Origin: a virus
Strand: one strand, 5' to 3'
DNA length: 32,917 bases
IMG/VR virus record: IMGVR_UViG_3300026549_000035
Span: 1 to 32,917 of that record
Each line of letters starts with the position of its first letter. Position 1 is the stretch's first letter. The position numbers were made by a program, and so were the translations under genes. This document shows, in pieces, positions 1,092 through 17,078 of this stretch. Under the pieces are notes generated by a model. It had not been told where the DNA came from and made no database searches. It worked only from the letters and a program-made list of their open reading frames with translations.

Positions 1092-1121
1092 AAGCATTTC
1101 CCCTTTTTATTTGATGTATTT

Positions 1122-1150: not shown

Positions 1151-1174
1151 TAGTTTTTTCGCCCGGGCGAATCG

Positions 1175-2527: not shown

Positions 2528-2589
2528 TTTAACCACGTCCTTTTCTTTAGTGTTTTAATTATAGCACATTCTGTGCCAGTTGTCAAGCG

Positions 2590-2763: not shown

Positions 2764-2832
2764 CTTTTTCTCTCCTTTCTCTCTTGATTACAATGTTATT
2801 ATAGCATACTTGTTGTAGAATGTCAATAGTTA

Positions 2833-3036: not shown

Positions 3037-3048
3037 TCTAAACCTCCA

Positions 3049-3417: not shown

Positions 3418-3479
3418 TATTAGCACCTCTCTTTCAGTGTCTTTATTATAACACGTTTTGATTAAAATGTCAATACTTT

Positions 3480-3850: not shown

Positions 3851-4000
3851 GAACACTTATAGTATAACACATAAAAGGTAAAAAGTCAATAGTTTTTTGA
3901 AAATTTTTTTCGTTATTTTTTTTAACAGGCACCCGGGCGCAAAGCCTGCGGAAATCCGCAGGCTAAGCACAGAAAGGAGGACTCAAAAATGAGGAGTTAT

Positions 4001-4075
4001 TGGTGCGTATAGTGGGAGTCGAACCCACCTAAACACGATTAAAAGTCGTGTGCATAGCCGCTTTGCTACATACGC
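4001..4075 (-). tRNA. tRNA-Lys, anticodon UUU, with an encoded CCA
   Basis: Acceptor stem GCGTATG/TATACGC (six Watson-Crick pairs plus one G-U). D-loop contains GG. Anticodon stem CACGA/TCGTG with loop CTTTTAA. T-arm GTGGG-TTCGACT-CCCAC. Discriminator A then CCA. Co-transcribed downstream of gene 4127..4492. Confidence 0.85.
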
Positions 4076-4126
4076 ATGATAGGGGGTGGGGGGATTTCGC
4101 TCCCCCCACGGAGCGGACTGAGGGAA

Positions 4127-4492
4127 TTAACCCGCAATCTTGAAGTAAGTCCGACGCTTCTCGGAGTATTTCTCGACCTTGTTCGCTTCAACGAGCTGAC
4201 GCATGAGAGCGGAAACGTGCTGATTGCTGTCACCTTCAAGCTCTGTGACAGACTTGATAAGGTCAGTGACCGTGAAGCCCTCATTCTCGTTATCAGCGAG
4301 GAAATCAACAATGACCTCTTTCAGCTCTTCGTTCTTGACCTGCTGAGCGGTCAGCTTCTTGGGAGAAGCGTTCTTCTTCTCCAACTGCTCCACCATCTTC
4401 TGAAGCTTTGCGGTAACTTCGGAATTGCTGTCACCGATAGCGTCGATGGCAAAAAGCAGGGCGGTCTTGTTAGTCATCTTGGTATTACTCAT
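4127..4492 (-). CDS. Hypothetical winged-helix-like protein (121 aa), paralog B2 of gene 1197..1565
   Basis: High sequence identity to 1197..1565. Tandem promoters at ~4545-4580 and ~4715-4760. Confidence 0.7.
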   Translation of the reverse strand: MSNTKMTNKTALLFAIDAIGDSNSEVTAKLQKMVEQLEKKNASPKKLTAQQVKNEELKEVIVDFLADNENEGFTVTDLIKSVTELEGDSNQHVSALMRQLVEANKVEKYSEKRRTYFKIAG

Positions 4493-4834
4493 AGTATCAA
4501 ATCCTTTCTGGTTTATTGGGTTTTCCTTCCCTTACTGTAGTTTTATTATAACACACCTTGCGGTAAAAGTCAAGGGTTTTTTCAAAGTTTTTTGAAAAAA
4601 TTTCTTCAAGTGTTGCAACTGCAATTCGGCTGTGCCTGTCCATTCTCGTAACCCCGTTAGGGATTGGTCATCAAATCACATAGGTCTTGGCTTGCTTGCC
4701 CTTGCCCTTGACTGTAATATTATTATAGCACATTCTCAAAAAAATGCAATAGGCAAAATGCACAAATCGGTCTAAATTTTTAACACTTTTTTGTGCATTT
4801 TGCGGGTGGCGCCCGGGCGCCCAAGGGCAGGCTG

Positions 4835-5332
4835 TTAGCCCACCCATGAGTAAACCTTGACTTTGGGAGTAATAGTCTTTTTAACCTTTTGCCATGTACC
4901 ACCATGTTCACGCCAGTCATATTTCGGATTAGGAATTGTATAGTTATTCCCATCATCATCGTGAACAATCAGCTCACGAGGCGGTGCCTCAGGGTTATCT
5001 ACCCAGTCTTCAACTTCAATAGTGATAGGTTCTCCATCAATTATCTCAGTCTTGATAATACCTTTATCAGAGAGAATTTTCATAACTCTGCCAATAAAGC
5101 TCGACCAGCTCCGAGCTTCTTTAGTACGCCCATAGGAGGTGTAGTCAAGAGAGCTTGAAAACTTACGAATAGCGTGCTTAGAATACTCCTCTCCCATGAT
5201 AGCGATACCAATTTCTTTACAGGTCATAGGCTTTGTTGCAGAGCGCAGAATATCAAGGACGATTTCGGTATTTGAGATTGTTTTCTTAGACTTTCTTGCT
5301 CCTACAAAAATTTCTTCATAACTTAATGACAT
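4835..5332 (-). CDS. Hypothetical protein (165 aa)
   Basis: ORF with promoter TAGACA-17-TATAAT at ~5385-5430. Terminator-like GGGTGG..CCACCC hairpin enclosing GCGCCCGGGCGC at ~4800-4835. Confidence 0.65.
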   Translation of the reverse strand: MSLSYEEIFVGARKSKKTISNTEIVLDILRSATKPMTCKEIGIAIMGEEYSKHAIRKFSSSLDYTSYGRTKEARSWSSFIGRVMKILSDKGIIKTEIIDGEPITIEVEDWVDNPEAPPRELIVHDDDGNNYTIPNPKYDWREHGGTWQKVKKTITPKVKVYSWVG

Positions 5333-5511
5333 TTTAAAATCTCCTTTTATTTATTTGATGGGGCTTGGCTTCCCTTCCCTCATCTGACATACTTATTATA
5401 ACAGATAATTTTCATTTTGTCTATTGGCAAATTGTATAAATATGGGTCTAAATTTTTAATATTTTTATACAGATTGTTAAACATACTGACAAAGCCCGAA
5501 GGGGCTAAGCA

Positions 5512-5703
5512 TTATTTAGAACGCTTAGCCCTACAAGCTTTGCACATCAGCGGTGAAGTTGCAACCGCAACCAACACGCACATGATACAGCCCAAAATGC
5601 GGAAGAAATCAAACTCACCAAGAGTGAATCCAAAAACATACAGACCCGCAAAAAAGGCACAAAGATAAGAAATGACGAACTTTACAATGTTGAGAACTTT
5701 CAT
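5512..5703 (-). CDS. Small membrane protein (63 aa)
   Basis: Hydrophobic ORF. Promoter TTGTTG..TATAAT and RBS AAAGGGG at ~5705-5760. Hairpin terminator GGGCTAAGC..GCTTAGCCC at ~5480-5512. Confidence 0.55.
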   Translation of the reverse strand: MKVLNIVKFVISYLCAFFAGLYVFGFTLGEFDFFRILGCIMCVLVAVATSPLMCKACRAKRSK

Positions 5704-5869
5704 AATTCACAACCCCTTTCTTTGTTGTGTCTTTATTATAGCATACCTTTTGGAAAAAATCAACAACAGGGTTGTCATTTTTCGGTTACAGAATTTTAAC
5801 CAGCCCGGGCGCAAGAGGGCGTTTATGAAAATGAAATGAAAAATGAGAAAATACTTATAAAAATGAAAT

Positions 5870-6162
5870 AAAAAAGGAAATGGATAGGCTATTGCCTACC
5901 CAAATCCTATACGTATTATAAAACAGAAAAAAGAGGAGGAATCTCAAAATCTGCGTAGTATTGGAAAGGAGTTGCCGTCGTCCAGTCCACACTCACTTAC
6001 AACGGCTGTGAGTTGTCTTTGCCTCACTAATTTTTATACCGCAAGGTGGTCTTACCTGACAAGTATCCTGTCTTGTGCGCTAACCCCACGTCGCTTACAC
6101 TTTTGCCACTGCTGGAAGAAGGCTCAATGCTTGCGGTCGAAAGAAGTTCTATCTCTCTTTTA
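5870..6162 (-). ncRNA. Candidate ~290-nt non-coding RNA (unit 2)
   Basis: Promoter TTGACTttttcattaaagtatgtTATAAT at ~6168-6203. The transcribed minus strand contains no AUG. Ends in an 8-bp hairpin GGGUAGGC..GCCUAUCC followed by a U-rich tract at ~5870-5901. Confidence 0.4.
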
Positions 6163-6209
6163 GTGTCTTTATTATAACATACTTTAATGAAAAAGTCAAG
6201 AGATTTTTA

Positions 6210-6565
6210 AAAATTTTTTTCTATCGTGAATGGGGGCAAAAGAGCTGGACTTACATTATCTTCTCAAATGCCGTCGTAATGCCCCCATTGAACGAGAGTT
6301 CCCTCATTGTCGGTCACTCTAAACCCATGCAAGAAGTTCTTTTGCCACTCTAACGCAGGCAAAAAGCTACTCACGTTCAAAAAGCCCCGCGTTGCTACCG
6401 CACTTGTTATTGTTCTTCACTCTTGAAAACAATCCATCTTCCGAGGCAGCGTTGAACACTACTCTGAAAAGTCACCAAGCCCGTTTTTTTTACTACTCAT
6501 GGGAGACTACTGGAACTCCCCTTTGTAGTTCCAAGTTCGTGGCGCCCTCTCCCTTGGAACACTTA
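6210..6565 (-). ncRNA. Candidate ~350-nt structured non-coding RNA (unit 1)
   Basis: Driven by the second copy of the ~90-bp promoter cassette (TTGACT-17-TATACT) at ~6575-6640. Strong stems (GGGAGA..UCUCCC, AAUGGGGGCA..UGCCCCCAUU, CUUUUGCC..GGCAAAAG). Only 13-17 codon AUG ORFs without an RBS. Confidence 0.35.
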
Positions 6566-6663
6566 TAGTATAACACATAAAAGGTAAAAAGTCAATAGTT
6601 TTTTGAAAAATTTTTTTCGTTATTTTTTTAACAAATGCCCGGGCGCGCACTAAGAGTTTTCCC

Positions 6664-7014
6664 TTAGTGCGTAAAATGAATGAACTGTTGAGCAGGTTCC
6701 CATTTCAGGTCATCCCATAGGAAATCTAATAAATTGTATTTTTTAAAGAGCCTATCAAAAGCGAATCTGGTAGGAATATCTAAGAGTTTAGAGCTTGGTA
6801 TTACTGAATTAGAATCTTCATCAAGATAAAAAACAATTCCTAAGAAGTAGCCCTCATCTGTCCAAGTGCTAATAATCGGACAGTATTTTTCATCAAAAAA
6901 TTCTTCAAATTCTTCTTCTGTCATTCCTTGCTCAAGAAACTTATCTAAAAGTTTGTCCCTTGTTTCAGAATCAATAACGATACCATATCCAACAGCATAA
7001 CTATCTTCTATCAT
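6664..7014 (-). CDS. Hypothetical acidic protein (116 aa), second gene of a two-gene operon
   Basis: RBS GGAGGAAtataatcATG directly after the stop of 7017..7271. Its TAA stop lies inside the terminator hairpin GCACTAAG..CTTAGTGC, next to GCGCCCGGGC. Confidence 0.65.
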   Translation of the reverse strand: MIEDSYAVGYGIVIDSETRDKLLDKFLEQGMTEEEFEEFFDEKYCPIISTWTDEGYFLGIVFYLDEDSNSVIPSSKLLDIPTRFAFDRLFKKYNLLDFLWDDLKWEPAQQFIHFTH

Positions 7015-7016
7015 GA

Positions 7017-7271
7017 TTATATTCCTCCATTATACAATAAACATAAAAAATAAATATTTAATACTGCACTTGAAAGGTGCATTACTAATCCACTTACTCT
7101 GCGGTCAGTGGTTAAATCTCGGATTATTCCTACCACAGCGATACCTAAACCAAGCCAAGAAATAGAAAGACCGAAGCACATAATAAGTATTACATTGATT
7201 ACCATAGCAACACAGCGCAGGTCATTCCATTCAAAGATGTAAGGCTCAGTAATATTGAAAAATCTCTTCAT
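7017..7271 (-). CDS. Small membrane protein (84 aa)
   Basis: Start MKRFF after AGAGGAG. Promoter TTGACAaataatttaaaacatgaTATAAT (extended -10 TGaTATAAT) at ~7285-7320. Confidence 0.6.
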   Translation of the reverse strand: MKRFFNITEPYIFEWNDLRCVAMVINVILIMCFGLSISWLGLGIAVVGIIRDLTTDRRVSGLVMHLSSAVLNIYFLCLLYNGGI

Positions 7272-7320
7272 CTTTATCAGCTCCTCTCTTTTTTCTATAT
7301 ATATTATATCATGTTTTAAA

Positions 7321-7446
7321 TTATTTGTCAAGCATTTCTTTATCCCAATCATCAAGAGCTTCCTTGCTCTGGTCGAGCCACGCGCCGAGGCTCGCGTCGC
7401 TCTCCACTTTCGAACTATATAAAAGCCATATAGGGGCTGTTGACAT
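7321..7446 (-). CDS. Small acidic protein (41 aa; MSTAPIWLLYSSKVESDASLGAWLDQSKEALDDWDKEMLDK)
   Basis: Missed by the ORF track because it is <60 aa. Strong RBS GGAAAGGAGAGG. Promoter TTGACAaagtggcacggggtgtgcTATAAT at ~7525-7560. Its last codons (L D K, then stop) are encoded by the -35 TTGACAAATAA of the next promoter. Confidence 0.45.
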   Translation of the reverse strand: MSTAPIWLLYSSKVESDASLGAWLDQSKEALDDWDKEMLDK

Positions 7447-7559
7447 GATTTCCTCTCCTTTCCACTTTCACACTTTACTGCGGTAAAGCCCCTCTCTCCC
7501 CTCGCAGGGGCGGGCTTCCGACACCTTTATTATAGCACACCCCGTGCCACTTTGTCAAG

Positions 7560-7790
7560 TTACAATTTTGTAACCTTTTCGTGCTTTAACGTATTAAAGC
7601 GTAGCGGTTTAACGTTTTAGTGTGCTAAAGTACTTTCGGGATTTACCATGTTAGCACTTTAACGTGTTAAAGCGTAACGATTTATTGCTTTAACGCTTTA
7701 GTGCGTGAAAACGGGTCGCGGCACCCAATCGCGACCCGCCGAATGCATAATTATTCATGGGTATGCTTGCATAAATATGCAAAAAAGGAT
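7560..7790. promoter_or_regulatory. Repeat-rich intergenic regulatory region: TTGTAAC direct repeats, multiple GCTTTAAC/GTTAAAGC palindromes, TTGCATAAATATGCAA, and the GC hairpin GGGTCGCG..CGCGACCC
   Basis: Iteron-like repeats read directly from the sequence. Architecture mirrors 9895-10095. Confidence 0.5.
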
Positions 7791-7848
7791 TGAGGTTAAT
7801 TCTCAACCCTTTATAAGTTTGTGTAGCGGTTTGGATTTTGAGGAAAAG

Positions 7849-8250
7849 CTATTTTAACTTTTCCTCAAGCCATGCTAACATTTTTTTACTTTCATCACGC
7901 AAGCGGATTTTTTCAGCTCCGCCATTTTTTTCGCTCTCTCTGGTAACGTAACCAAAAGCATTTACAAAAGCGATATACTCAGCTTTTTCCATAACGTAGG
8001 CTGTGCCGTTTCTGGTAGCGTAAATGTAAAGGTCAGAAGCGTCAAGGTCAAGGTATCTTTCAAGGTCTGTGCCTTTGCAGATAGAAGCCTTTGCGCTTTT
8101 CACTTGGAAGTTAAGAACATCAGCCCCTTTGTCAAATCTCAGGTTATCAGCCTTTAGGATTTCACCTGTTAAATGAAATCTGATTGACTGCTCTGCGTTT
8201 TGTCCGTGATTGCGGTAGTTGTTAAGATAAGTGAAAGTAAATGCTCTCAT
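7849..8250 (-). CDS. Hypothetical protein (133 aa)
   Basis: Start MRAF after AAAGGA. Promoter TTGACAagCCCGGGCtgatgtgcTATAAT at ~8255-8310. Imperfect hairpin terminator at ~7775-7812. Confidence 0.65.
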   Translation of the reverse strand: MRAFTFTYLNNYRNHGQNAEQSIRFHLTGEILKADNLRFDKGADVLNFQVKSAKASICKGTDLERYLDLDASDLYIYATRNGTAYVMEKAEYIAFVNAFGYVTRESEKNGGAEKIRLRDESKKMLAWLEEKLK

Positions 8251-8319
8251 TTTTCGATCGTCCTTTCGTCTTTCGTTAATACTATTATAGCACATCAGCC
8301 CGGGCTTGTCAAGCCTTTT

Positions 8320-8481
8320 TCAAGAAAAAATATAATTTTTCTTGAAACTGTAAAAGGCTTGTTCAAACTGTAAAAGCTCCGACAGAGTGAAACGGCTTGC
8401 GAAATGCTCAGGCGTTTCATCAAACAGGTAATAGCCATTTTTTACCATTCTTTCCACGACATAAATTTTTGATTCTTTCAT
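8320..8481 (-). CDS. Small protein (53 aa; MKESKIYVVERMVKNGYYLFDETPEHF...)
   Basis: Below 60 aa, so absent from the ORF track. RBS GAGAGGAGAA. Extended -10 promoter (acaTGaTATAAT) paralogous to the promoter at 7285-7320. Confidence 0.45.
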   Translation of the reverse strand: MKESKIYVVERMVKNGYYLFDETPEHFASRFTLSELLQFEQAFYSFKKNYIFS

Positions 8482-8545
8482 TTTAGTTTTCTCCTCTCTC
8501 TTTACTATCTATATTATATCATGTTACGTGTCCTATAAACGGGAC

Positions 8546-8950
8546 TTAGAGAGCTACCGCTTCACCTTTTTCAGCTAAAGTGATTGCTTCATATCCAGCC
8601 TTTGTCCATTGGCGGGTATTCTTGGGGTCATCATCAACCAGAACGCCAACCTCACGGATAAAATCAACTTTGCGACCATAACCAACTATGCAGATAAAAT
8701 TTGCAAGTGCAAATTCGGGAATGTGCTTTGCAAGCCAATCAATTTTTCCCGCCTTGCCTGCTTCGTTGCGGGCTTTGGTCAGAATGTAAACCTTGACGCC
8801 TTCAGCGATAAGTCTGCGGACTGTTGAAACGTTCTCAGTGAATGGTTCAAGATTTGCCATAGCTTCACGGCTTGCGGCAGTGTTTTTGTCAGTAGCATAC
8901 GCTTTGTGGAAGTTGGCGAGAACGCCGTCCATGTCAAAGTAGTAAGTCAT
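8546..8950 (-). CDS. HAD-superfamily 5'(3')-deoxyribonucleotidase-like protein (134 aa)
   Basis: N-terminal motif YFDMDGVLANF (DxDGV, typical of NT5C-type nucleotidases). Start MTYYF after GGAGG. Promoter TTGACAtCCCGGGCtgtttggtgTATAAT. Confidence 0.8.
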   Translation of the reverse strand: MTYYFDMDGVLANFHKAYATDKNTAASREAMANLEPFTENVSTVRRLIAEGVKVYILTKARNEAGKAGKIDWLAKHIPEFALANFICIVGYGRKVDFIREVGVLVDDDPKNTRQWTKAGYEAITLAEKGEAVAL

Positions 8951-9093
8951 TTTTCGATCCTCCGTGTCTTTCATTGTCTTAATTATACACCAAACAGCCC
9001 GGGATGTCAAGCGTTTTTTGAAAAAAAATATTTTTTGTTAAAATGCACAAATTGGGAATATAGAATTTGTGCAACATTTAGCGCATTTTTCTC

Positions 9094-9122
9094 TTGACTT
9101 TTGGTGGGAGGTGTAGTATAAT
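9094..9122 (+). promoter_or_regulatory. Plus-strand sigma-A type promoter TTGACT-17-TATAAT driving a ~65-nt transcript antisense to the 3' end of gene 9181..9363
   Basis: TTGACTtttggtgggaggtgtagTATAAT. The transcript has hairpin GGGGCG..CGCCCC and terminates in the 10-bp stem ATAAGCGGAT..ATCCGCTTAT (9160-9184), shared with the convergent gene. Confidence 0.55.
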
Positions 9123-9180
9123 ATTTCGGGGCGCCACGCCCCTGATCGGTGACAAAAAAATAAGCGGATTTGCGATCCGC

Positions 9181-9363
9181 TTATCTGTGCCAGATTTTGA
9201 GGCTTGAAGCATACCGACCGAGGGGATACGTGCGAACCTCTTGTAGTTCAACATAAGAAACTTTGCCGACTTTTGAATTGAAGTAAGCAAGCGCCTCATC
9301 ATAGTTACGGAAAGCCTCATCTTCTCTAAAATTCCAAGTCACTACATAAAACATTTCTTTCAT
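9181..9363 (-). CDS. Small protein (60 aa), member of a 56-65 aa paralog family (with 12185..12355 and 13783..13980)
   Basis: Promoter TTGACAagCCCGGGCttttgatgTATAAT and RBS AAAGGAAAGAGG. Shares the YFN..V..ELK..IW pattern with 12185..12355. Confidence 0.6.
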   Translation of the reverse strand: MKEMFYVVTWNFREDEAFRNYDEALAYFNSKVGKVSYVELQEVRTYPLGRYASSLKIWHR

Positions 9364-9454
9364 TTTTCTTACCTCTTTCCTTTATCTTATGTATACATTA
9401 TACATCAAAAGCCCGGGCTTGTCAAGCCCTTTTATTGGACTTTGTAAAATTTTT

Positions 9455-9622
9455 TTATTTGCTCCAATCAGGGTTGAAAACCACAAAACCGTTGACATTT
9501 TTTGCGACTTCTTCTGCTTTGTCTGCGTTATCAAACGCACCCCAAAACCAGTCAGCACCGTCGCACTCTCTCGCTACGATGTAGGGAAAATCATCGGCGT
9601 AATCAGGCACATTCTTAATCAT
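9455..9622 (-). CDS. Small acidic protein (55 aa; MIKNVPDYADDFPYIVARECDGADWFWGAFDNADKAEEVAKNVNGFVVFNPDWSK)
   Basis: Missed by the ORF track. RBS AAGAGAGGAG. Promoter TTGACAaactcgatctcttggggTATACT, preceded by GGTTACAA..GTTACAA direct repeats. The overlapping plus-strand ORF 9389..9655 is an artefact. Confidence 0.5.
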   Translation of the reverse strand: MIKNVPDYADDFPYIVARECDGADWFWGAFDNADKAEEVAKNVNGFVVFNPDWSK

Positions 9623-9727
9623 TTTTCAAGCTCCTCTCTTAACTTTCTATACTAAGTATACCCCAAGAGATCGAGTTTGTCAAGCATTTTTTGAGATTGT
9701 AACTAATTTGTAACCTTTTGGATAATA

Positions 9728-9856
9728 AAAAAAATGAGGGCTTGCGCCCTCGGTGCTGACTTGCTCTCAGCTGGAACAGAGCTTTGTTTTAAGTGCGCCC
9801 ACCACTCGTAGTGTCGGCTGGTTTTTAGGTGTGCTCTGTTTCTCCCTTCACCCTAC
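9728..9856 (-). ncRNA. Candidate small RNA (~125 nt): consensus promoter, no AUG anywhere in the transcript, classic intrinsic terminator
   Basis: Promoter TTGACTtttataacataatcgtgTATAAT (-10 at 9863-9868). Terminator GAGGGCgcaaGCCCUC plus U8 at 9727-9752. Internal stem CAGAGC..GCUCUG. Confidence 0.5.
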
Positions 9857-9894
9857 AAGTAGATTATACACGATTATGTTATAAAAGTCAAGCA

Positions 9895-10095
9895 TTTTTT
9901 GAAATTGTAACTATTTTGTAACCTTTGCATACCCATGCATAATTATGCATACTTTCGGGATTTAATACTTTAGTGTGTTAAAGTGCATAATTATGCACTT
10001 TATTGTTGTAGCACTTTAACGCGCTAAAATCGGCGCGGGTCGATCGTAGGCGCGCCGCCGAAACAAAGTCCAATAAAATGGACTGAATAATTATG
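9895..10095. promoter_or_regulatory. Palindrome-rich regulatory region: ATGCATAATTATGCAT (perfect 16-bp), GTTAAAGTGCATAATTATGCACTTTA, GCACTTTAACG, TTGTAAC repeats, GC hairpin GGCGCG..GCGCGCC
   Basis: Read directly from the sequence. Shares TACTTTCGGGATTTA and the motif families with 7560-7790. Confidence 0.45.
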
Positions 10096-10117
10096 CAAAA
10101 AAAAATGCGGTCACCGC

Positions 10118-10375
10118 TCAGGGGAAAATCTGAGCGGTGATGTCAACGACAATCCAGCGAGAGCCGTCCTCAGAGAGGGAGCGTTCCCAGACCAAACCGC
10201 AAGGGAGAAAAATGCGGTTTCTGCGTTCCCAGCCTCGAACTGCCATGTCAATGAACAGCTCGAACATCTGGCTCTGAGTGAGACCTTCGAAAAGGCTTCT
10301 GACGAACCACATCTGACCATCGTCAGGAACAAGGCTCAGCAGAGTGCGGTAGTGGTTAAAATCTTTCTTAGTCAT
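10118..10375 (-). CDS. Hypothetical protein (85 aa)
   Basis: RBS AAAGGAGGAA. Promoter TTGACT-17-TATAAT at ~10400-10440. C-terminal codons and the TGA stop are encoded inside the terminator stem CACCGCTCAG..CTGAGCGGTG followed by a U9 tract. Confidence 0.6.
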   Translation of the reverse strand: MTKKDFNHYRTLLSLVPDDGQMWFVRSLFEGLTQSQMFELFIDMAVRGWERRNRIFLPCGLVWERSLSEDGSRWIVVDITAQIFP

Positions 10376-10528
10376 GTTAGTTCCTCCTTTGGGGGGGTAG
10401 CCCCTCTTTCATTGTCTTTATTATAGCACACTCGGGCAAAAAAGTCAATAGTTTTTTCAAAGAAAGTATTCGTCAAAATATACAAATCGGGAATCTTTTT
10501 TGACTGTGAAGTTTGTGCATTTTGCGAA

Positions 10529-10557
10529 TTGATTTTTGCGGCGGGCTGTGGTATAAT
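10529..10557 (+). promoter_or_regulatory. Plus-strand promoter TTGATT-17-TATAAT driving a short transcript antisense to the 3' end of gene 10603..10911
   Basis: The transcript begins AATTTCCGGC and ends at hairpin GGATTAGC..GCTAATCC (10600-10620). The same architecture recurs at 9094 and 12477. Confidence 0.5.
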
Positions 10558-10602
10558 AATTTCCGGCTCTGGCGCCCGGGCACGGTGACGAAAAGAAAAG
10601 GA

Positions 10603-10911
10603 TTAGCAATACGCTAATCCCATTGTTTTCCAATTCAAAATTGAAATTTGATTGCATTTTCTTCCAATTGTCAGAGCCTCTCTTTTAGTATTAACTCTGT
10701 GACTTTTATCAACATAGTAAATACCATTTGAAAACCATACGCCGCAGTTTCCATTATACGCTTTTACTGCGTTTATTGCTTCTCTTGGGCTTGTCGTTTC
10801 AACGCCTTCCGTTGCAACCTGCCAGCCTGTTTTGTAGGTTGTGGCTTTTCCCTTTTTTAAGGTTAAGCCCTCATTTTCTTTAAGTTTCAGAATTGAACGA
10901 ATGTTAATCAT
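10603..10911 (-). CDS. Hypothetical protein (102 aa)
   Basis: Start MINIRS after AGAGAGGAG. Promoter TTGACTtttcgCTCGGGCtgtgcTATAAT at ~10935-10980. Confidence 0.6.
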   Translation of the reverse strand: MINIRSILKLKENEGLTLKKGKATTYKTGWQVATEGVETTSPREAINAVKAYNGNCGVWFSNGIYYVDKSHRVNTKREALTIGRKCNQISILNWKTMGLAYC

Positions 10912-11002
10912 TTTCTTATCTCCTCTCTTTATTGTGTCTTTATTATAGCACAGCCCGAGCGAAAAGTCAAGTGTTTTTTCAAAAAAAATAAAGGGCGTAT
11001 TT

Positions 11003-11272
11003 TTACGCCCATTGTAATTTTCCATCGACTACATAGATAACACTCTCTGCGCCATCGTATTCATCGACATAGTGGTCGGTGCAATTTTCGGGAAGCTCAA
11101 CAACTTTTAACTCAGCGTGAGTTCCATTTACATCTTCCCCTGCTTCTATTGCTGAGATTAACTCAGCATTATAGCGGAGTTCTTCACTATCATGAGAATC
11201 AATTCCAAGGCGGTCTGCCCATTCCTTAGATACGCTAAATCCACCATAGCAAGCATTGACAATTAATTTCAT
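11003..11272 (-). CDS. Hypothetical acidic protein (89 aa)
   Basis: RBS AAGAGAGGAG. Promoter TTGACTtttggatgcgtctatgcTATAAT at ~11285-11335. Stop overlaps terminator GGGCGTA..TACGCCC plus a T-tract. Confidence 0.65.
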   Translation of the reverse strand: MKLIVNACYGGFSVSKEWADRLGIDSHDSEELRYNAELISAIEAGEDVNGTHAELKVVELPENCTDHYVDEYDGAESVIYVVDGKLQWA

Positions 11273-11397
11273 TTTTTTTTATCTCCTCTCTTTATTGTAT
11301 CTTTATTATAGCATAGACGCATCCAAAAGTCAATAGTTAAATTGCACAAAGATGTGATAAGAATTCTGTGCAGATTGACGAATCCGCCCGGGCGCAA

Positions 11398-11544
11398 TTA
11401 ATAAGGCAGATACGCCTTTTTGTGTTTGCGTTCTGCCTTTCTCAGCTTACCTTTTTTTGTATCTTCTACTTTTGGAGCGAAGCCCACAAAAGTCGGTCCT
11501 CTGTGTTTTCTTTTTTCCTCGGTTTTCTTTGTCCTGTGGCTCAT
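11398..11544 (-). CDS. Small highly basic protein (48 aa; MSHRTKKTEEKRKHRGPTFVGFAPKVEDTKKGKLRKAERKHKKAYLPY), likely nucleic-acid binding
   Basis: Start after GGGGAG. Promoter TTGACAtttgaggggttttgtgcTATAAT. The 79-aa ORF-track version starts upstream of the promoter and is rejected. Confidence 0.5.
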   Translation of the reverse strand: MSHRTKKTEEKRKHRGPTFVGFAPKVEDTKKGKLRKAERKHKKAYLPY

Positions 11545-11587
11545 TTTTATCTCCCCTTTCATTGTCTTTATTATAGCACAAAACCCC

Positions 11588-11881
11588 TCAAATGTCAAGA
11601 GGTTTTTCAGAAAAAAGTTCTTTTTCTTCAATTTCATAGTCTAAGCCATCAAGATGGAAGAAAAAAGCCTTCTTTTTTAATAAAATTTTAAGCCATTCTT
11701 TACCATATAAGTTTTTTAAACTCAACCATTTAGAATAAATTGAATAATAGCTTGTATAATTTTCACTTAATCCCTTGTTATCAATAAGCCATTGGATTGC
11801 GCTTGCATGGCTGTCACAAACCGCTACAACCTCAGTAGTATCATCAAAACCGTAAGTTTCTGTAATTGTAAATACTGTCAT
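11588..11881 (-). CDS. Hypothetical protein (97 aa), co-transcribed after gene 11912..12097
   Basis: RBS AAAAGGAG. Last codons L-D-I then stop are encoded by the next promoter's -35 (cTTGACAtttga). Confidence 0.6.
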   Translation of the reverse strand: MTVFTITETYGFDDTTEVVAVCDSHASAIQWLIDNKGLSENYTSYYSIYSKWLSLKNLYGKEWLKILLKKKAFFFHLDGLDYEIEEKELFSEKPLDI

Positions 11882-11911
11882 TTTTATCGCTCCTTTTGGA
11901 TAGCTGAGGGG

Positions 11912-12097
11912 TTAACTCTCAGCCCACCAGTCAGCAGTTTTCATCTTTGCGATTTCGCCCTCTAAGCGGTCAAGGCTCAGATTGTTGTCGGGATAGCTTT
12001 CGCATTTTCTTGCGAAGTCAATAGTTTCGGGAGCTTCATGTCCGAACATTCTGATTACTTCGGTCAACATTTCTTCTCTTGTTCTTCTTTCTGTCAT
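11912..12097 (-). CDS. Hypothetical protein (61 aa)
   Basis: Promoter TTGACAagcaagggtttttgtgtTATAAT and RBS AAGGAAAGGAAG. Stop inside hairpin GGCTGAGAGTTAACCCCTCAGC. Confidence 0.6.
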   Translation of the reverse strand: MTERRTREEMLTEVIRMFGHEAPETIDFARKCESYPDNNLSLDRLEGEIAKMKTADWWAES

Positions 12098-12184
12098 TTT
12101 GATAACTTCCTTTCCTTTTTTCTGTCTTTATTATAACACAAAAACCCTTGCTTGTCAAGTGTTTTTTAAACAAAATCTGGCGTT

Positions 12185-12355
12185 TTATTTACGCCAGATT
12201 TCAATGCTCTGTGAGTAGTAGCGGTGACCATTGTCATCAACTGCTTTCAGTTCGCAGTAGGTGAAATTTCTCTTTACTCTGTTAAAGTAAGCTCTCGCTT
12301 TTTCCTCAGTGTTAAATTCCTCATAGGTTTTATAAGCAGATACTACAAATGTCAT
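12185..12355 (-). CDS. Small protein (56 aa), paralog of gene 9181..9363
   Basis: Start MTFVV after AAGGAAAGAGAGG. Promoter TTGACTttaaagacttttcatgcTATAAT. The ORF-track N-terminal extension is rejected. Confidence 0.55.
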   Translation of the reverse strand: MTFVVSAYKTYEEFNTEEKARAYFNRVKRNFTYCELKAVDDNGHRYYSQSIEIWRK

Positions 12356-12476
12356 TTTGTTTTCCTCTCTTTCCTTTTTTCTGTCTTTATTATAGCATGA
12401 AAAGTCTTTAAAGTCAATAGGCAAAGTGCACAAATCGGGAGCGCCCGAGCGCATGAAAGTTTGTGCATTTTGCCTA

Positions 12477-12505
12477 TTGATTTTGTGTGGGGATTGTGCT
12501 ATAAT
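12477..12505 (+). promoter_or_regulatory. Plus-strand promoter TTGATT-17-TATAAT, divergent from the promoter of gene 12185..12355. The inverted repeat TGCACAAA..TTTGTGCA (12427-12467) lies between the two -35 elements
   Basis: Transcript ATTTCCGGCUACGCC... ends at hairpin GGGCTGA..TCAGCCC (12542-12559), which is also the terminator of the convergent gene 12553..12903. Confidence 0.5.
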
Positions 12506-12552
12506 ATTTCCGGCTACGCCGATCGTCCTCGAAAATTAAAAGGGCTGATTGC

Positions 12553-12903
12553 TCAGCCCCAAAGTGAATTAACTGCTATTGAAAGAGACCCTTCTCGAAC
12601 ACCAGTTTCACTGTAACCATAGTATTTGCTATAATCTGTTTGATTTTTTTCTCCTCTTGCTTTAATCTCTGCTTGGATTCTACGCCAACCAATTTCAAAG
12701 CAATAATCTATAAACCATTCAGAATATCTATATTTTTCTCTTCTTGCTTTACTATAGGTCATAACAGCAATTTGATCATTAGGGTATTCTCTTTTTAACT
12801 GTTGCTTTAATGCTTGTAATTCCTCAATGTTAGTGGAGTGTTGGATAATTTTACAACCATCGTGAGAAGGTTTTTCGTTTACTTTAATTACTGCATACTC
12901 CAT
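12553..12903 (-). CDS. Hypothetical protein (116 aa)
   Basis: Promoter TTGACAagCCCGGGCtaatatgcTATAAT. RBS AAAGAGAGAGG. Confidence 0.65.
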   Translation of the reverse strand: MEYAVIKVNEKPSHDGCKIIQHSTNIEELQALKQQLKREYPNDQIAVMTYSKARREKYRYSEWFIDYCFEIGWRRIQAEIKARGEKNQTDYSKYYGYSETGVREGSLSIAVNSLWG

Positions 12904-13009
12904 GATTATTTTCCTCTCTCTTTACTGTGTTTTTATTATAGCATATTAGCCCGGGCTTGTCAAGCGTTTTTTGAAAAAAAATAAAAAAAATAAGACTGAT
13001 TGCTCAGTC

Positions 13010-13324
13010 TTATAAATCTTCATCCATAGCATCTTCATAACACTTTGAACAATAGATTTTATTATTAATTAAATCTTCAAGGCTATCACCGAGTCTTAGT
13101 TCCAAATCTAAGGCGGAAACTGTCTCGCCGCAATCAGGACAAATAAAGATTTTTTGCTCTCTCAGGAAAGTATCTATTCTTTTACCTTCGGCGCTAAGTC
13201 TTGATTTTTCTCTCTGGCGAATTTCTCCACGATATTTATAAACCTTAACATACTTTTCGTGATACTTTGTGTAATAATTATTGGCATAGTCTAGTGCGAG
13301 TTCAGCAATTTCTTTTCTTGTCAT
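13010..13324 (-). CDS. Hypothetical zinc-ribbon protein (104 aa; CPDCGETV...CSKCYED)
   Basis: Start MTRKEIAEL after AAGGAAAGAGAGG. Promoter TTGACAttttgCTCGGGCtatgcTATAAT. Terminator AAGACTGA..TCAGTCTT with a T-run at ~12975-13010. Confidence 0.6.
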   Translation of the reverse strand: MTRKEIAELALDYANNYYTKYHEKYVKVYKYRGEIRQREKSRLSAEGKRIDTFLREQKIFICPDCGETVSALDLELRLGDSLEDLINNKIYCSKCYEDAMDEDL

Positions 13325-13440
13325 TTTTATTTTCCTCTCTTTCCTTTTTTCTGTATTTATTATAGCATAGCCCGAGCAAAATGTCAAGTGTTTTTTGAAA
13401 ATTTTTTTTGTTAATTTTTTAACAATCCATTTCCATAAAT

Positions 13441-13465
13441 AAAAACCGCCGTAGCGGTTTTTATT
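13441..13465 (-). terminator. Intrinsic terminator AAAACCGC-CGTA-GCGGTTTT. A second copy lies at 13764-13786
   Basis: Stem ACCGC/GCGGT with a CGTA loop flanked by A and T runs. Shares the CCGTAGCGG core with repeats in 14150-15310. Confidence 0.6.
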
Positions 13466-13489
13466 TAATTAATCACAGTACATCCAAGT

Positions 13490-13642
13490 TTCAAGTTCTT
13501 TCAAAGATACACCAAGATACTTTGACGCTGACTTCCAGCTTTCATCCAGTTTATCAAAAAAGATATCGTTCTGTTCATCTGTTAAACTATTGATTTTGGC
13601 TTCTACCTTATTGTATGTTTTTGTTAATTTTTTGACTGTCAT
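13490..13642 (-). CDS. Small protein (about 50 aa; MTVKKLTKTYNKVEAKINSLTDEQNDIFFDKLDESWKSASKYLGVSLKRT)
   Basis: RBS AAGAGAGGAG. Promoter TTGACAttttaCTCGGGCtatgtTATAAT. A +1 frame would extend it to 13468 across an A4/T5 run, so the 3' end is uncertain. Confidence 0.4.
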
Positions 13643-13782
13643 TTTTATTATCTCCTCTCTTTATCTTGATTACATTATAACATAGCCCGAGTAAAATGTC
13701 AAGTGTTTTTTTGAAAAAAATAAAAATTTTTTTTGTTAAATTTTTAACAATTTTTCCCAAAATTAAAACCGCCGTAGCGGTT

Positions 13783-13980
13783 TTAATCCATGTGTTCTTG
13801 GCGAACTACAAAGAACTTGTCGACCTTAGTCCAGTCAACCTTGTCACCGTTCCAGAGTCTTGCGGGTTTGGTAGCGTTCAGAGTGTTTACCTCAGCCTCG
13901 GCTCTTTCCACGGTCTTGTAGGTTTCGTATGCGAGATAGCTCTCACCAGTCTTGGTAGTGTAACAGATAGCAGTTGTCAT
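13783..13980 (-). CDS. Small protein (65 aa)
   Basis: Promoter TTGACAtttcctgtaattcatgtTATAAT. RBS AAGGAAAGGAAG. Followed by the CCGTAGCGG terminator. Confidence 0.55.
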   Translation of the reverse strand: MTTAICYTTKTGESYLAYETYKTVERAEAEVNTLNATKPARLWNGDKVDWTKVDKFFVVRQEHMD

Positions 13981-14204
13981 TTTAATACTTCCTTTCCTTT
14001 TTTCTGTCTAAATTATAACATGAATTACAGGAAATGTCAATAGTCAAATTGCACAAAGATAATCGCTAAAAAAAGGTTGGTTTTGTGCATAGTGCCCAAT
14101 TAGGGCTGTGCCGACCGTTGACGTAGATTGTTAATTATTTAACAATCTATCCCCAACCTGTGTCTAACTGATAGATGTTGACACCGTAGCGGTTTACATC
14201 ATTG

Positions 14205-14365
14205 TGTGTATAACACTGTTGTTCTGTGTGTGATACTCTCTCTTTGTCTTTGTGTGTGTTGTGCTTCTCTCTCTCTCTCTTTGCTTCTCTTTGTGTGTAT
14301 GCTTCTCTCTCTCTCTCTCTTTGCTTCTCTCTTACTCTCTTTGAGTGTGTCACACACACAAACGC
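14205..14365. repeat. Low-complexity CT/GT-rich tract with ~38-bp tandem units (GCTTCTCTCTCTCTCTCTTTGCTTCTCTTTGTGTGTAT-like)
   Basis: Read directly from the sequence. Lies 3' of gene 14374..14703. The overlapping ORFs in both strands here are low-complexity artefacts. Confidence 0.7.
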
Positions 14366-14373
14366 CTTGCCCC

Positions 14374-14703
14374 TTAGTCAGCAAAAGGGTCAAGGCGCAC
14401 ACTCAAGATTTCATCATCATAGATGGTTGAAGTTCCCTGATTATCCATGAGTACAATAACAGAGTTATCTTTTTGAAAATTTTCTGTTCCAAAGAACTCC
14501 CAAATCTCTCCATGAGAATCTTCTATTTGAACAGTGTCCGAGGCTGTATCTACATCTACTACTTTAGCCTGCATGGTGTAATTAGTATCATTAGTCGTGG
14601 GTGAACTTGCGCGATAAATAAGACATACTACAAAAATGGTAACTATTACCAAATGTGTTACTACGCAGATGTTAATGATTGCATAGAATGTTTTGTTTTC
14701 CAT
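14374..14703 (-). CDS. Membrane-anchored protein (109 aa; N-terminal TM helix, beta-rich C-terminal domain)
   Basis: Promoter TTGACAagaagccaagagtatgcTATAAT, preceded by the TGCACAAA..TTTGTGCA inverted repeat. RBS AAAGAGAGAGAGG. Confidence 0.65.
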   Translation of the reverse strand: MENKTFYAIINICVVTHLVIVTIFVVCLIYRASSPTTNDTNYTMQAKVVDVDTASDTVQIEDSHGEIWEFFGTENFQKDNSVIVLMDNQGTSTIYDDEILSVRLDPFAD

Positions 14704-14995
14704 GGGTGATTGTCCTCTCTCTCTTTATTGTATCTTTATTATAGCATACTCTTGGCTTCTTGTCAATAGTCAAATTGCACAAAGATAGTATTAGTCTTTT
14801 GTGCATTTTGCCAATAGCACAAACGTTCGAACGCTCCCCCAATCTTGGCACTACGCTGATGGGAGCGTGTGCCGTAGCGGTTACTGGGGCTGTAGGTTGG
14901 TTAGCCAATGCTAACTTAATAGGGAGATTACCCTAATTAGTAAAATAGGGGTTAGGTATTGCTAACTCAATTCAAACAAAAGTTCGAACAAACGT

Positions 14996-15036
14996 CCAGC
15001 CTGTGCGTTGGCTGATAGGAGCCAGCACCGTAGCGG
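14996..15036. repeat. 41-bp direct repeat, copy 2 (CCAGCCTGTGCGTTGGCTGATAGGAGCCAGCACCGTAGCGG). Copy 3 is at 15267-15307 and a diverged copy 1 at 14154-14193
   Basis: 37 bp are identical between copies 2 and 3. All copies end in the CACCGTAGCGG motif. Confidence 0.8.
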
Positions 15037-15625
15037 CATAGCAAGATGCACAAAGAGCCGCAATAGATTTTGTATAGTTTTACCAATCGTTAGAGATTCA
15101 GCAAGAGGGTCGTGCTTCATGGGGGTTTACACAAAAAATTATCGAAGAGCTTATTACACGCAAACTACGGTCGTTGCGCCCAGTAACGACCGTAGCAAAA
15201 CTAACTATCTCGTTTTAGGCGTGGCTAATCTTCACAGAGTTAGCCTTAGCTAATTGGTCTCATACTCCAACCTGTGCGTTGGCTGATAGGAGCCAGCACC
15301 GTAGCGGTTCATTCATTGGGGGTATTTAACTTACCCCAGGGTGTTTGACAGGGGTGAGATGCGACAGTAGGCCCTAGCATTTTTTCTCAATCAGCAATAC
15401 TTTTTATATATTTTTAATGAGATAAAAATGGAAAGAGGGGGGCACTATTTCGGGAAAAAATTTTTTTTAAAGAGAAAAAATTTTTTTGTCTGACCAAAAC
15501 TATCTTGAAACTAATTTTCATTTTCAATTACGATATCAGGAAAAATATTCTTCCCTCTTCTTTTTTTACCTTTTTCAAAAAAAATATGCCGGCCGCAATT
15601 ATCGCCACCGACATTCGAATTATCA

Positions 15626-15913
15626 TTAAACATTACGCACAAATACATGCCAAACTAATCCATCATCCATTTGAACTGTTCCTATATAATCTCCAATATA
15701 ACCATATTTACATCCCGTTCCCAAAACAGTAATTTCCACGGTTATTTTTTCATTTTCTTTCCGATGTTTTCCACTGTACTTTTCTATATGATTTTCAGCC
15801 CACATTACTAAATTATTGTTTTGTTTTCCAACTGTAAAAATTCCAGTAAACCAACCTTTAATTCTTACACATCCGCCTTCTGGAAGAATATATTTGTACA
15901 TTACTTTTTTCAT
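15626..15913 (-). CDS. Hypothetical protein (95 aa) in the AT-rich block
   Basis: Start MKKVMYK after AAAGGATGA. Promoter TTGATT-17-TATAAT at ~15930-15960, back-to-back with the plus-strand promoter at 15973-16001. Confidence 0.55.
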   Translation of the reverse strand: MKKVMYKYILPEGGCVRIKGWFTGIFTVGKQNNNLVMWAENHIEKYSGKHRKENEKITVEITVLGTGCKYGYIGDYIGTVQMDDGLVWHVFVRNV

Positions 15914-15972
15914 AAAAAAATCATCCTTTTTTTTTATTTTTATTATATAATATTTTTTTAAATTAATCAAAT

Positions 15973-16001
15973 TTGACAGAAGAAAAATTTTTTGTTATAA
16001 T
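15973..16001 (+). promoter_or_regulatory. Sigma-A type promoter TTGACA-17-TATAAT for the first plus-strand gene
   Basis: TTGACAgaagaaaaattttttgtTATAAT, then GGAGG and the ATG at 16031. Confidence 0.65.
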
Positions 16002-16030: not shown

Positions 16031-17078
16031 ATGATAAAACTTGATTATTCTTTAACTTCTCCAGAAGATAGAAATAAATTAGTAAAAAAAATACTCGAAG
16101 AAAATCCTGACCCAGGAGAAAAATATCTAGAAATTTTGGCTGATTACCTTATCTTCGCCATGGAGAAAGAAGAAAAAAAGAAAAAGAAAATTCTTACTGA
16201 AAATAGGATGACTACCGTAAATAAGAGAGAAACATCTTTTGAAGGTCTTGTCGCTCAATTGGAAAATGGCGAAGATGGTATATATAATTTAATAACAAAC
16301 AATAAACAAGTAATATTTCAACCAAAAGTAACAATAACAAAAAAAGATTTAGCAGACATTCCCCCTCTTCGTGAATTGCGCGAGACTATTAGTAATTGGG
16401 AAACAAAATTAAAAACGGCTGAAGGTAAGGATCGTTTTATTATTAAAAAGGCGCTGATAGAAATGCGCAAAGACCAATACATAATAAAAAATTCTTATCG
16501 ACAACCAATTATCCCAAATAAAATAACAAGGTCTTCTAGTTATATCCATTTAGATGATAACACTAACGCATTTGATGAAGAGGGGTATCCTATTTCTGAA
16601 GGATTTTCCTTAATGAATCCAAAAGTTTGTGAAGCTATTTTATGCAACTATTCTCGATTAAAGCAAGATGCGGAAGGAAAGTTTGAAGGCGATACTTGGT
16701 ATATAATCTATGATTTTGAAAATCTTTGCGAAAAAGCCTTAGAAAAATATCCTTTATATATGCGCTTAGTCGAATATAAAATTGATGGTATGCAAAACAT
16801 TGATATTTAGGTTTAGCTTCAATTAGAGTTTGGAATTAAACATAGCGTAGAATACATCTCAAGTTTATGGCGCAATAAAATTCCTAAATTAATTGCGTCC
16901 GCAGCTGAAGATGAATATTTAGACTGGTATTATTTAAATATTGCTAAAGGAAAATATAAAAAATGTAGTCGATGCAACGAAATTAAACTTGCGCACAATA
17001 AATATTTTAGCAAAAATAAAACCAGTAAAGATGGTTTTTATAGTATATGTAAAAGTTGTCGAAATAAGAAAAAAACTT
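16031..17078 (+). CDS. Hypothetical protein. A 259-codon TAG-free body, then tandem in-frame TAG-GTT-TAG (16808, 16814), then an 88-codon C-terminal zinc-ribbon tail (CSRCNEI...CKSCRNKKK) ending at TGA
   Basis: The frame stays open through both TAGs and encodes a plausible CxxC...CxxC domain. The overlapping ORF 16941..17279 in another frame has no RBS. Readthrough depends on TAG being a sense codon. Confidence 0.55.

Follow-up and report, generated by a model that had tools for sequence, protein, structure and literature searches.

The DNA analysed here, called the window throughout, is a stretch of 32,917 nucleotides (nt) from a virus, a phage of the gut or rumen (IMG/VR record IMGVR_UViG_3300026549_000035, positions 1 to 32,917), identical to a stretch of contig k141_7166 (177,555 base pairs, bp) of ENA assembly ERZ27252065. 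Our subject is an inverted repeat with the 8-nt arms TGCACAAA and TTTGTGCA, which at three loci between positions 9041 and 12565 lies between a minus-strand gene promoter and a plus-strand promoter, the latter pointing at the 3′ end of a convergent minus-strand gene. These loci belong to a left arm (1 to ~15,400) in which ~35 minus-strand units, small genes or non-coding, each have a near-perfect TTGACA-17-TATAAT promoter and, as a rule, a terminator of their own. Since a phage sigma factor gene starts the right arm, and the left-arm genes carry such promoters, the three loci sit in an early arm that depends on the host polymerase; its layout is comparable to the host-takeover module of phage SPO1. 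Promoters were called by pattern. The three loci are composed as follows.

9044–9073: inverted repeat of site 1, TGCACAAA-N14-TTTGTGCA, exact; right arm 20 nt from the plus-strand −35, left arm 33 nt from the minus-strand −35
9094–9122, plus strand: sigma-A-type promoter of site 1, TTGACT-17-TATAAT, 11/12 to consensus
9128–9142, plus strand: 5′ hairpin of site 1, GGGGCG-CCA-CGCCCC, beginning 6 nt after the −10
9158–9186, minus strand: terminator of gene 9181–9363, stop codon in the stem, T-run on the minus strand only
8982–9010, minus strand: divergent promoter of site 1, TTGACA-17-TATAAT, for the 5′-nucleotidase-like gene 8546–8950
10479–10519: inverted repeat of site 2, TATACAAA-N25-TTTGTGCA, left arm (10479–10486) degenerate; right arm 9 nt from the plus-strand −35
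10529–10557, plus strand: promoter of site 2, TTGATT-17-(TG)TATAAT, 10/12
10563–10585, plus strand: 5′ structure of site 2, a GC-rich irregular hairpin with a GCCCGGGC palindrome
10599–10621, minus strand: terminator of gene 10603–10911, with a weak T-rich tail (CATTGTTTTC) on the plus strand as well
10420–10448, minus strand: divergent promoter of site 2, for gene 10118–10375, with an A/T-rich upstream stretch
12427–12467: inverted repeat of site 3, TGCACAAA-N25-TTTGTGCA, exact; each arm 9 nt from its own −35
12477–12505, plus strand: promoter of site 3, TTGATT-17-(TG)TATAAT, 10/12
12511–12521, plus strand: short 5′ hairpin of site 3, CGGC-UAC-GCCG
12541–12560, minus strand: terminator of gene 12553–12903, T-run on the minus strand only
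12389–12417, minus strand: divergent promoter of site 3, for gene 12185–12355

The original prediction had placed a TTGAYT-17-TATAAT promoter on the plus strand of each locus; all three were recovered, each back-to-back with a minus-strand consensus promoter. On this strand, a pattern scan of positions 6,000–16,000 returned only these three, an intragenic match (10/12) at 12607 and the right-arm promoter at 15973. The repeat, announced for all three sites, is exact at sites 1 and 3, and at site 2 the left arm reads TATACAAA in place of TGCACAAA. At site 3 the arms extend beyond 8 nt to ~21 nt each (TCAATAGGCAAAnTGCACAAA ... TTTGTGCAnTTTGCCTATTGA), and the two promoters are partial mirror images. 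What had been described as a conserved transcript start, AAUAUUUCcGGC, is the discriminator together with the first bases of the 5′ GC hairpin, and the hairpin is the real conserved feature. The GGUGAC-AAAA segment, composed of the end of the stem region and the complement of the neighbour's U-tract, was found at sites 1 and 2, while site 3 reads CGTCCTCGAAAATTAAAA.

The hairpins said to terminate the convergent genes are present at all three loci, with the stop codons in or beside the terminator stems and an A-run ahead of each hairpin on the plus strand. The plus transcripts had been expected to end in the same hairpins. This part is not supported: apart from a weak plus-strand tail at site 2, the T-run lies on the minus strand alone, so that an end of the plus transcripts after ~50–56 nt is an assumption. 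The pairing of an upstream A-run with a downstream T-run that marks a bidirectional intrinsic terminator was found at none of the three hairpins. Folding of the predicted plus RNAs gives a 5′ hairpin followed by the terminator hairpin; the z-scores range from −2.1 (whole transcript of site 2) to −3.0. Rfam searches gave no family for the units: only a tRNA reached the gathering threshold, and at E ≤ 1 there were only spurious microRNA matches on the long repeat.

Four further copies of the repeat were correctly predicted to lack a plus-strand promoter.

4759–4797: N23, exact; left arm 9 nt from the minus-strand promoter 4749; right arm without promoter and joined to a GGCGCCCGGGCGCC palindrome
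11343–11372: N14, right arm TCTGTGCA with one mismatch; left arm 9 nt from the minus-strand promoter 11333; to the right only a decayed plus promoter, TTGACG-17-TTAATA (11375–11403)
14050–14089: N24, exact; left arm 9 nt from the minus-strand promoter 14040; no plus promoter
14776–14805: N14, exact; left arm 9 nt from the minus-strand promoter 14766; no plus promoter

Exact copies of TGCACAAA-N(8–30)-TTTGTGCA number five in the window and zero in 100 shuffles. When the promoters of the window were aligned, two kinds of upstream region became apparent: an A/T-rich stretch of the form ttttcaaaaaacnc at most minus-strand promoters, and the sequence TTTGTGCAnTTTgmCTA, 9 nt before the −35, at a second kind that includes the minus-strand promoters 4749, 11333, 12417, 14040 and 14766 as well as the plus-strand promoters 10529 and 12477. 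The supposed operator is thus two promoter-upstream half-sites set head to head. A scan of IMG/VR, whose figures are lower bounds, turned up at least 120 contigs with the repeat; among the matches listed, the spacer measured 13–15 nt in 97 cases and 24–26 nt in 60, with few others, and TTGACA-17-TATAAT promoters flanked the repeat on both sides very often. In 56 loci retrieved through protein homology, and hence unbiased for the repeat, the 8-mer occurred 157 times (~10 expected), the spacers were 14 nt (16 cases) or 23–26 nt (15 cases) only, and the everted arrangement of half-sites was seen in zero cases. The gap from the proximal arm to the −35 in these loci was 9–10 nt (32 cases), 19–20 nt (10), 30–31 nt (6) or 40–41 nt (2). 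Half-site spacing and promoter distance are therefore both quantised by one helical turn.

Neither in the window nor in these loci did the repeat overlap the −35, the −10 or the transcription start; it keeps to one helical face upstream of the −35, a placement more in keeping with an activator site than with a classical repressor operator. It is also asymmetric, with TCCCGA(A/T) preceding the arm beside an mRNA-type promoter in 22 of 114 cases and the arm beside a hairpin-unit promoter (described below) in 0 of 28; among strains, the GGGA of this extension does not vary. The restricted spacing, the helical phasing and the strain invariance described next together argue that the repeat is a genuine selected element, putatively of the protein-binding type, common to bidirectional promoters. 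The shared element of the original prediction is thus upheld, and its character as a repressor operator is not. A promoter element of the phage sigma factor was considered and ruled out, as the right arm of the window holds a single copy of the 8-mer, and a literature search with the 8-mer returned unrelated primer sequences only.

Strain variants were obtained from contigs of other samples by exact-protein look-ups, giving the same genes with diverged intergenic DNA, and seven distinct variants each of the site-1 type and the site-3 type (14 in all) were compared. The −35 and −10 hexamers of the plus promoters varied in 0 of 24 alignment columns and the repeat arms in 2 of 32, as against 20 of 39 in the repeat spacer (13 of 25 at site 3), 9 of 34 in the promoter spacer and 8 of 29 in the segment between arm and −35 (37 of 102 for these three pooled). 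The arms of site 1 were invariant in its seven variants, and the sole arm change among strains, from TGCACAAA to TATACAAA, is the variant that the window has at site 2; strain L321 has the canonical TGCACAAA arm at site 2. By this measure of conservation, hexamers held constant over 14 variants while the spacers drift, the three plus-strand promoters are judged to be genuine. Within the transcribed part, the strain changes at site 3 fall in loops only. The site 1 hairpin has undergone two different C-to-T stem changes, each of which gives a G·U pair in the plus-strand RNA and an A·C mismatch on the minus strand, and in the doubly changed variant the 5′ hairpin is retained in the plus sense only. 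Amounting to two events, this is a weak sign of constraint on the plus-strand RNA.

The same comparison revealed that the units are shuffled as modules among gene contexts and are not tied to particular genes. In L312–L319, homology to the window ends just upstream of the 10448 promoter, and there the plus unit of the site-2 type has another minus-strand promoter as its partner, one driving a purine-rich RNA. In L321, homology spans the repeat, the plus promoter and the first hairpin, and then stops. Homologues of the genes 10603 and 8546 in more distant phages (63–81% identical) mostly come without the unit; the 12553 protein has no relative in IMG/VR. By geometry the plus transcripts are antisense to the 3′ terminator regions of genes 9181, 10603 and 12553, as had been proposed. 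Because the units are unlinked to particular genes, however, gene-specific antisense control appears unlikely.

To place the plus-strand units within a larger set, an unbiased census of 1,054 distinct consensus promoters was taken in related phages, and the promoters were divided into classes by the minimum free energy (MFE) of the first 52 nt. A hairpin class (MFE < −15; n = 111, ~10% of the 1,054; GC content 0.58) was thereby separated from a leader class (MFE > −9; n = 848; GC content 0.32). A ribosome-binding site and start codon within 75 nt were found in 17% of the hairpin class and 84% of the leader class, and TTTGTGCA lay upstream in 51% and 11%, respectively. The order of a hairpin unit in other phages is a consensus promoter, often with a GG discriminator, followed by GGAAATTT, a GC palindrome, (T)CAAAAA and the terminator of the convergent gene. 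The palindrome is GC-rich, nearly perfect, 8–18 bp long and different in sequence from copy to copy; it follows the −10 after ~8 nt, and this distance is fixed across units. Orientation was judged from gene and promoter maps and from neighbouring promoters, automatic scoring of second hairpins and open reading frames (ORFs) being too crude. Against the local majority of leader promoters pointed 59 of 88 hairpin-class promoters (67% of those that could be oriented) and 38 of 794 leader-class promoters. Four loci were mapped, with up to six hairpin units per 7 kilobases (kb), each directed toward a gene 3′ end and usually back to back with an mRNA promoter. Of the convergent hairpins that could be scored in the family, 31 of 35 had an upstream A-run, as expected of a terminator of the opposite strand, and only 6 of 35 a downstream T-run on the strand of the unit itself. 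At 12 loci a second consensus promoter opposes the unit across its palindrome, 36–38 nt away.

Facing pairs of consensus promoters were observed with 32–38 nt between the −10 hexamers and a single GC palindrome between them (L067:217, L072:2710, L079:3475 and 5248, L100:6475 and 9955, L113:9207), a distance at which simultaneous occupancy by two polymerases would be impossible. Mimicry of clustered regularly interspaced short palindromic repeats (CRISPR) by an RNA anti-CRISPR was considered for the hairpins and rejected, as their sequences differ between copies within one phage.

Bacterial genomes were scanned for the repeat with one genome per species, host names being taken from the record titles of metagenome bins. 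The matches listed came mainly from contigs named Lachnospiraceae, Roseburia, Ruminococcus, Oscillospiraceae, Butyrivibrio and other Clostridia, and many of these contigs look like phage. At least 15 of the matches are one chromosomal locus adjoining ftsH (L173, L183, L184, L193, L198, L201, L206, L207, L233, L236, L237, L249, L251, L271 and L274). Here a promoter with an extended −10 is preceded by TGCACAAA-N13-TTTGTG(A/C)A-N2-TTTGTGCA, that is, by the repeat and a further direct half-site 10 bp on, and leads into a conserved C-rich small RNA of ~100 nt with a terminator (motifs CCCCCC, ACCCC and CCUUCUCC; overall GUAAA-CCCCCCAAUACAUUAUAUAGUUUUUGCUACACCCCAUAAG...CCUUCUCC), for which Rfam holds no family. 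In 12 aligned ftsH loci (Lachnospiraceae, Roseburia, Butyrivibrio, Clostridium) the half-sites are invariant and the flanks differ; three more loci were seen in context. The distance from the proximal arm to the −10 is 21 nt at this host promoter and 32, 42 or 53 nt in phages, which puts host and phage sites on the same helical face. No repeat was found ahead of host tRNA genes.

The presence of the repeat at a host chromosomal small-RNA promoter suggests that its reader is probably a host factor, which would be the most economical reader of the motif and would have been borrowed by the phages; a phage early protein, the binder that had been proposed originally, is by the same token not the most likely one. 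Two other sets of elements share the 8-mer and were set aside as different, namely the TwoAYGGAY-associated long palindromes and the Halobacillus/Bacillus palindromes upstream of msmX-like genes. The half-site TTTGTGCA may resemble the ResD box TTTGTGAAT, a likeness that a literature search did not confirm and that serves as a lead only.

We tentatively favour, at somewhat less than even confidence, the reading that the three loci are factor-dependent bidirectional promoter modules whose plus side is a cis-acting antisense hairpin unit. The TTTGTGCA half-sites would be binding sites for a transcription factor, most likely of the clostridial host, that acts as an activator or otherwise contacts RNA polymerase from one helix face upstream of the sigma-A promoters of the early arm. 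At each of the three loci, one repeat would serve two back-to-back promoters: the minus promoter would yield an early mRNA, and the plus promoter, which is strong by its match to consensus, is predicted to fire a transcript that starts at the base of the GC hairpin and meets the terminator of the early gene upstream head-on. The units would then act as punctuation in cis, opposing or absorbing read-through from the upstream gene, pairing with the 3′ terminator region of its mRNA, or both, and would in this way keep the factor-controlled downstream promoter independent; they would not be gene-specific regulators acting in trans.

Several observations weigh against this reading. About half of the hairpin units carry the repeat, which means that repeat and hairpin unit are separable. 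The hairpins are near-perfect DNA palindromes without overall strand bias, neither folding energies nor G·U counts favouring one strand as the strand of function (37 versus 30 G·U pairs; Wilcoxon p = 0.72), which leaves room for a role at the DNA level or on the minus strand. At site 2, L316 has a G-to-A change that would speak for the minus strand, provided that the predicted pair exists; the three 5′ hairpins of the window are short or irregular relative to the family; and the left arm of site 1, at 33 nt from its own −35, is slightly off phase. Nor does the reading account for the use of a promoter, rather than a stronger terminator, for insulation. The host-factor inference depends on a single recurrent chromosomal locus, and the phage itself offers candidate binders: an AbrB/MazE-like protein (368–619), the only clear DNA-binding domain found, and the abundant family of 1197–1565 and 4127–4492, a possible winged-helix by a weak, sub-threshold Pfam match. 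No additional DNA-binding candidates emerged when the early proteins were compared with Pfam and with PDB sequences.

Four other explanations were weighed. That the repeat is the operator of a phage early repressor, and that the ~60-nt plus RNAs are specific antisense regulators of 9181, 10603 and 12553 in the manner of lambda oop, we consider unlikely. The dyad symmetry, present in two spacing classes (14 and 23–26 nt), with promoters on both sides would suit such a model, the transcripts would complement the terminators and last codons of the three genes, and for Staphylococcus phage K small antisense and intergenic RNAs without known function have been reported from the early region of the terminal repeat (PMC9241854). 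The arms, however, never lie over the core promoter and keep their helical phase upstream of the −35; the repeat is also found at a host chromosomal promoter, a plus-strand T-run is absent at sites 1 and 3, and the units are unlinked to particular gene families. There is likewise only a small probability, in our estimate, that the role lies in the DNA, with the plus promoter loading a second RNA polymerase that boosts the mRNA promoter by cooperative recruitment or negative supercoiling, and the short RNA a by-product kept short by the GC hairpin and the convergent terminator. This would account for the fixed back-to-back arrangement, in which the two −35 elements tend to lie ~46, 60 or 70 bp apart, for the mRNA-type partner promoter in at least 19 of 28 repeat-linked hairpin units, and for a hairpin sequence that is free to vary without evident complementarity to a target. 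It sits poorly with the 44 of 111 hairpin units that have no divergent partner detectable by the strict pattern, with the position of the hairpin at the 5′ end, where it is expected for RNA stability and not for stopping a polymerase, and with the A-rich rather than U-rich sequence that follows it.

The plus RNAs might instead be small RNAs acting in trans or as decoys, abundant and stabilised by the 5′ hairpin, which would sequester a host RNA-binding protein, a nuclease or a defence sensor, or would serve as replication primers like the origin transcripts of T4. In favour are the strong consensus promoters, many of them with a GG discriminator, the placement of the hairpin at the very start of the transcript and the presence of several copies in a genome; we nevertheless regard it as very unlikely, since copies within one phage have different hairpin sequences and so offer no common target or mimic, no Rfam family matches, a defined 3′ end is lacking, and the antisense orientation bias is left unexplained. 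Highly doubtful, too, is the proposal that the GC palindrome is a second, back-up terminator of the minus strand, with the reverse complement of discriminator and −10 as its U-rich tail, or a recombination scar that marks module junctions, the plus promoter being a mirror-image relic of cassette duplication. The palindrome does fold equally well on both strands, with a GAAAUAUUAUA-like sequence after it on the minus strand, homology among strains stops directly after the first hairpin, a decayed plus promoter is found at 11375–11403, and promoter–stem-loop (PeSL) cassettes of T4-type phages are reported to mediate modular shuffling (Arbiol et al. 2010). A U-rich tail, however, requires neither the −35, nor the 17-nt spacing, nor the −10, all of which are unchanged from strain to strain and conserved even in very divergent phages; the distance between −10 and hairpin is fixed, and the tail would contain only 3–5 U in 12 nt.

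The preferred reading, a factor-dependent bidirectional module with a cis-acting hairpin unit, was also set against known systems. It comes close to the p4 switch of Bacillus phage phi29 (A2b/A2c, A3), where the half-sites of an inverted repeat, about two helical turns apart, likewise lie between divergent sigma-A promoters, in a position upstream of the −35 that permits contact with RNA polymerase. Unlike the p4 sites, however, the repeat has an unrelated half-site sequence, many copies per genome, two spacing classes one turn apart, a tiny non-coding RNA as one partner transcript and a counterpart in host chromosomes; no p4-like gene was identified here. Distances between site and promoter in ~10-bp steps (21, 32, 42 and 53 nt to the −10) are shared with class I and class II activator sites, for which CRP is the paradigm, and with ComK boxes, whose spacers also differ by helical turns (here 14 or 24 nt between half-sites), but TTTGTGCA differs from the consensus sequences of CRP/FNR, ComK, Rex and ResD.

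Like lambda oop RNA and P22 sar RNA, the plus transcripts would be short, non-coding, driven by a constitutive-looking promoter of their own and complementary to the end of a convergent neighbour gene; they differ in that they lack a canonical terminator on their own strand, in being multi-copy, modular and not tied to one target, and in their defining feature, a 5′ GC hairpin of free sequence. With T4-type PeSL cassettes and the SPO1 host-takeover module the window has in common its arrays of very small early genes with their own strong sigma-70/A promoter and stem-loop, junctions that are sites of modular shuffling, and, here, a phage sigma-factor gene after the early arm. The units described here, by contrast with PeSL cassettes, oppose the gene array, carry the hairpin downstream of the promoter at the transcript 5′ end, and are linked to a putative factor-binding repeat. 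Convergent transcription over a very short distance recalls the face-to-face promoters pR and pL of coliphage 186 and bidirectional termination of the collision type, except that no lysis/lysogeny switch is involved here and the elements are repeated many times with one side non-coding. The module thus combines features of known systems and departs in defining properties from a repressor operator, from an oop-like RNA with its own terminator or fixed target, and from any Rfam family. It is widespread, recurring across hundreds of uncultured relatives, and, in the sources searched, so far undescribed.

The sigma factor homologue that opens the right arm is encoded at 16031–16810 (plus strand), behind a perfect TTGACA-17-TATAAT promoter at 15973–16001, and its product is 35% identical to proteins named 'sigma factor' of the Enterococcus phages VRE9_1 to VRE9_4 (~134–142 kb). 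The right arm is AT-rich and has long contiguous reading frames only with TAG read-through: between 16031 and 32732 on the plus strand, 27 ORFs of at least 150 amino acids were found with TAG recoded, as against 13 under the standard code, which is the code of the left arm. A tRNA-Lys(UUU) at 4001–4075 (minus strand) is the only tRNA found in the window; no suppressor tRNA is present there. A blastn search of GenBank phages with positions 8500–13000 gave only a 53-nt chance-like match in Streptococcus phages, and hence no cultured relative at the DNA level.

The left arm has several further features, most of them repetitive. The palindrome GCCCGGGC, with up to one mismatch, occurs at 17 sites within 156–13377 (1.7 expected; e.g. 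4811, 8298, 10574, 11386 and 12949). Each copy either falls in the 17-nt spacer of a minus-strand promoter or separates an upstream terminator from the promoter or repeat that comes next; the palindrome may have a structural role or serve as a second protein site. The junction TTTGTGCAaaatgNcgg(g)cgcccgggc was found in other phages too (L022, L087, L262). Iteron-like blocks at 7560–7790 and 9890–10100, made of the short repeats CACTTTAAMG and TTAAAGCG together with GCATAATTATGC palindromes, are possibly an origin or a protein-binding array, and similar blocks were seen in L121, L127, L153, L188 and L197. Three non-coding stretches on the minus strand have promoters of their own and no match in Rfam, namely the ~330-nt twins 3500–3860 and 6230–6570, with identical TTGACT-17-TATACT promoters at 3889 and 6595, and 5850–6170. 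Repeat-carrying promoters often start purine-rich RNAs or leaders (ACAGUCAAGGGCAAGGGCAAGC..., ACAAGGUAAGGGAAGGG...), as at 4600–4722, 1680–1752 and 5340–5395 (all minus strand) and in L289, L290 and L312; these could be 5′ stabilisers or sponges for the C-rich host RNA. Two paralogous gene pairs lie on the minus strand, 723–1097 with 3049–3417 and 1197–1565 with 4127–4492, and the families of 723–1097 (18 of 121) and 1197–1565 (25 of 121) are among the most frequent at repeat-bearing loci of other phages. The window opens with a poly-T of ~87 nt (1–87), a CT/GT-rich low-complexity tract lies at 14200–14360, and CCGTAGCGG occurs in six copies within 13449–15299.

In its broadest form, which we regard as possible if doubtful, the finding would mean that a large clade of phages of gut and rumen Clostridia, some of them with TAG-recoded late genes, has wired its host-takeover genes to a host transcription factor through the phased TTTGTGCA repeat, and has interspersed those genes with antisense hairpin-promoter devices of a new class. 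The host would then use the same repeat at a C-rich regulatory RNA, and self-contained modules of convergent initiation with a 5′-terminal RNA hairpin would punctuate or time early transcription. If the units turned out to be silent, what is left would be a description of promoter architecture. At ~100 bp the hairpin units are compact; they are also modular and widespread, and if they insulate or time transcription by convergent initiation they would be a new natural device and a useful synthetic part. The occurrence of the same site at a Lachnospiraceae small-RNA promoter would give a handle on the host regulator that the phages exploit. For uncultured phages of gut and rumen Firmicutes, the phased factor site with its antisense hairpin promoters would be a conserved, countable code that lets metagenomes yield early regulons directly.

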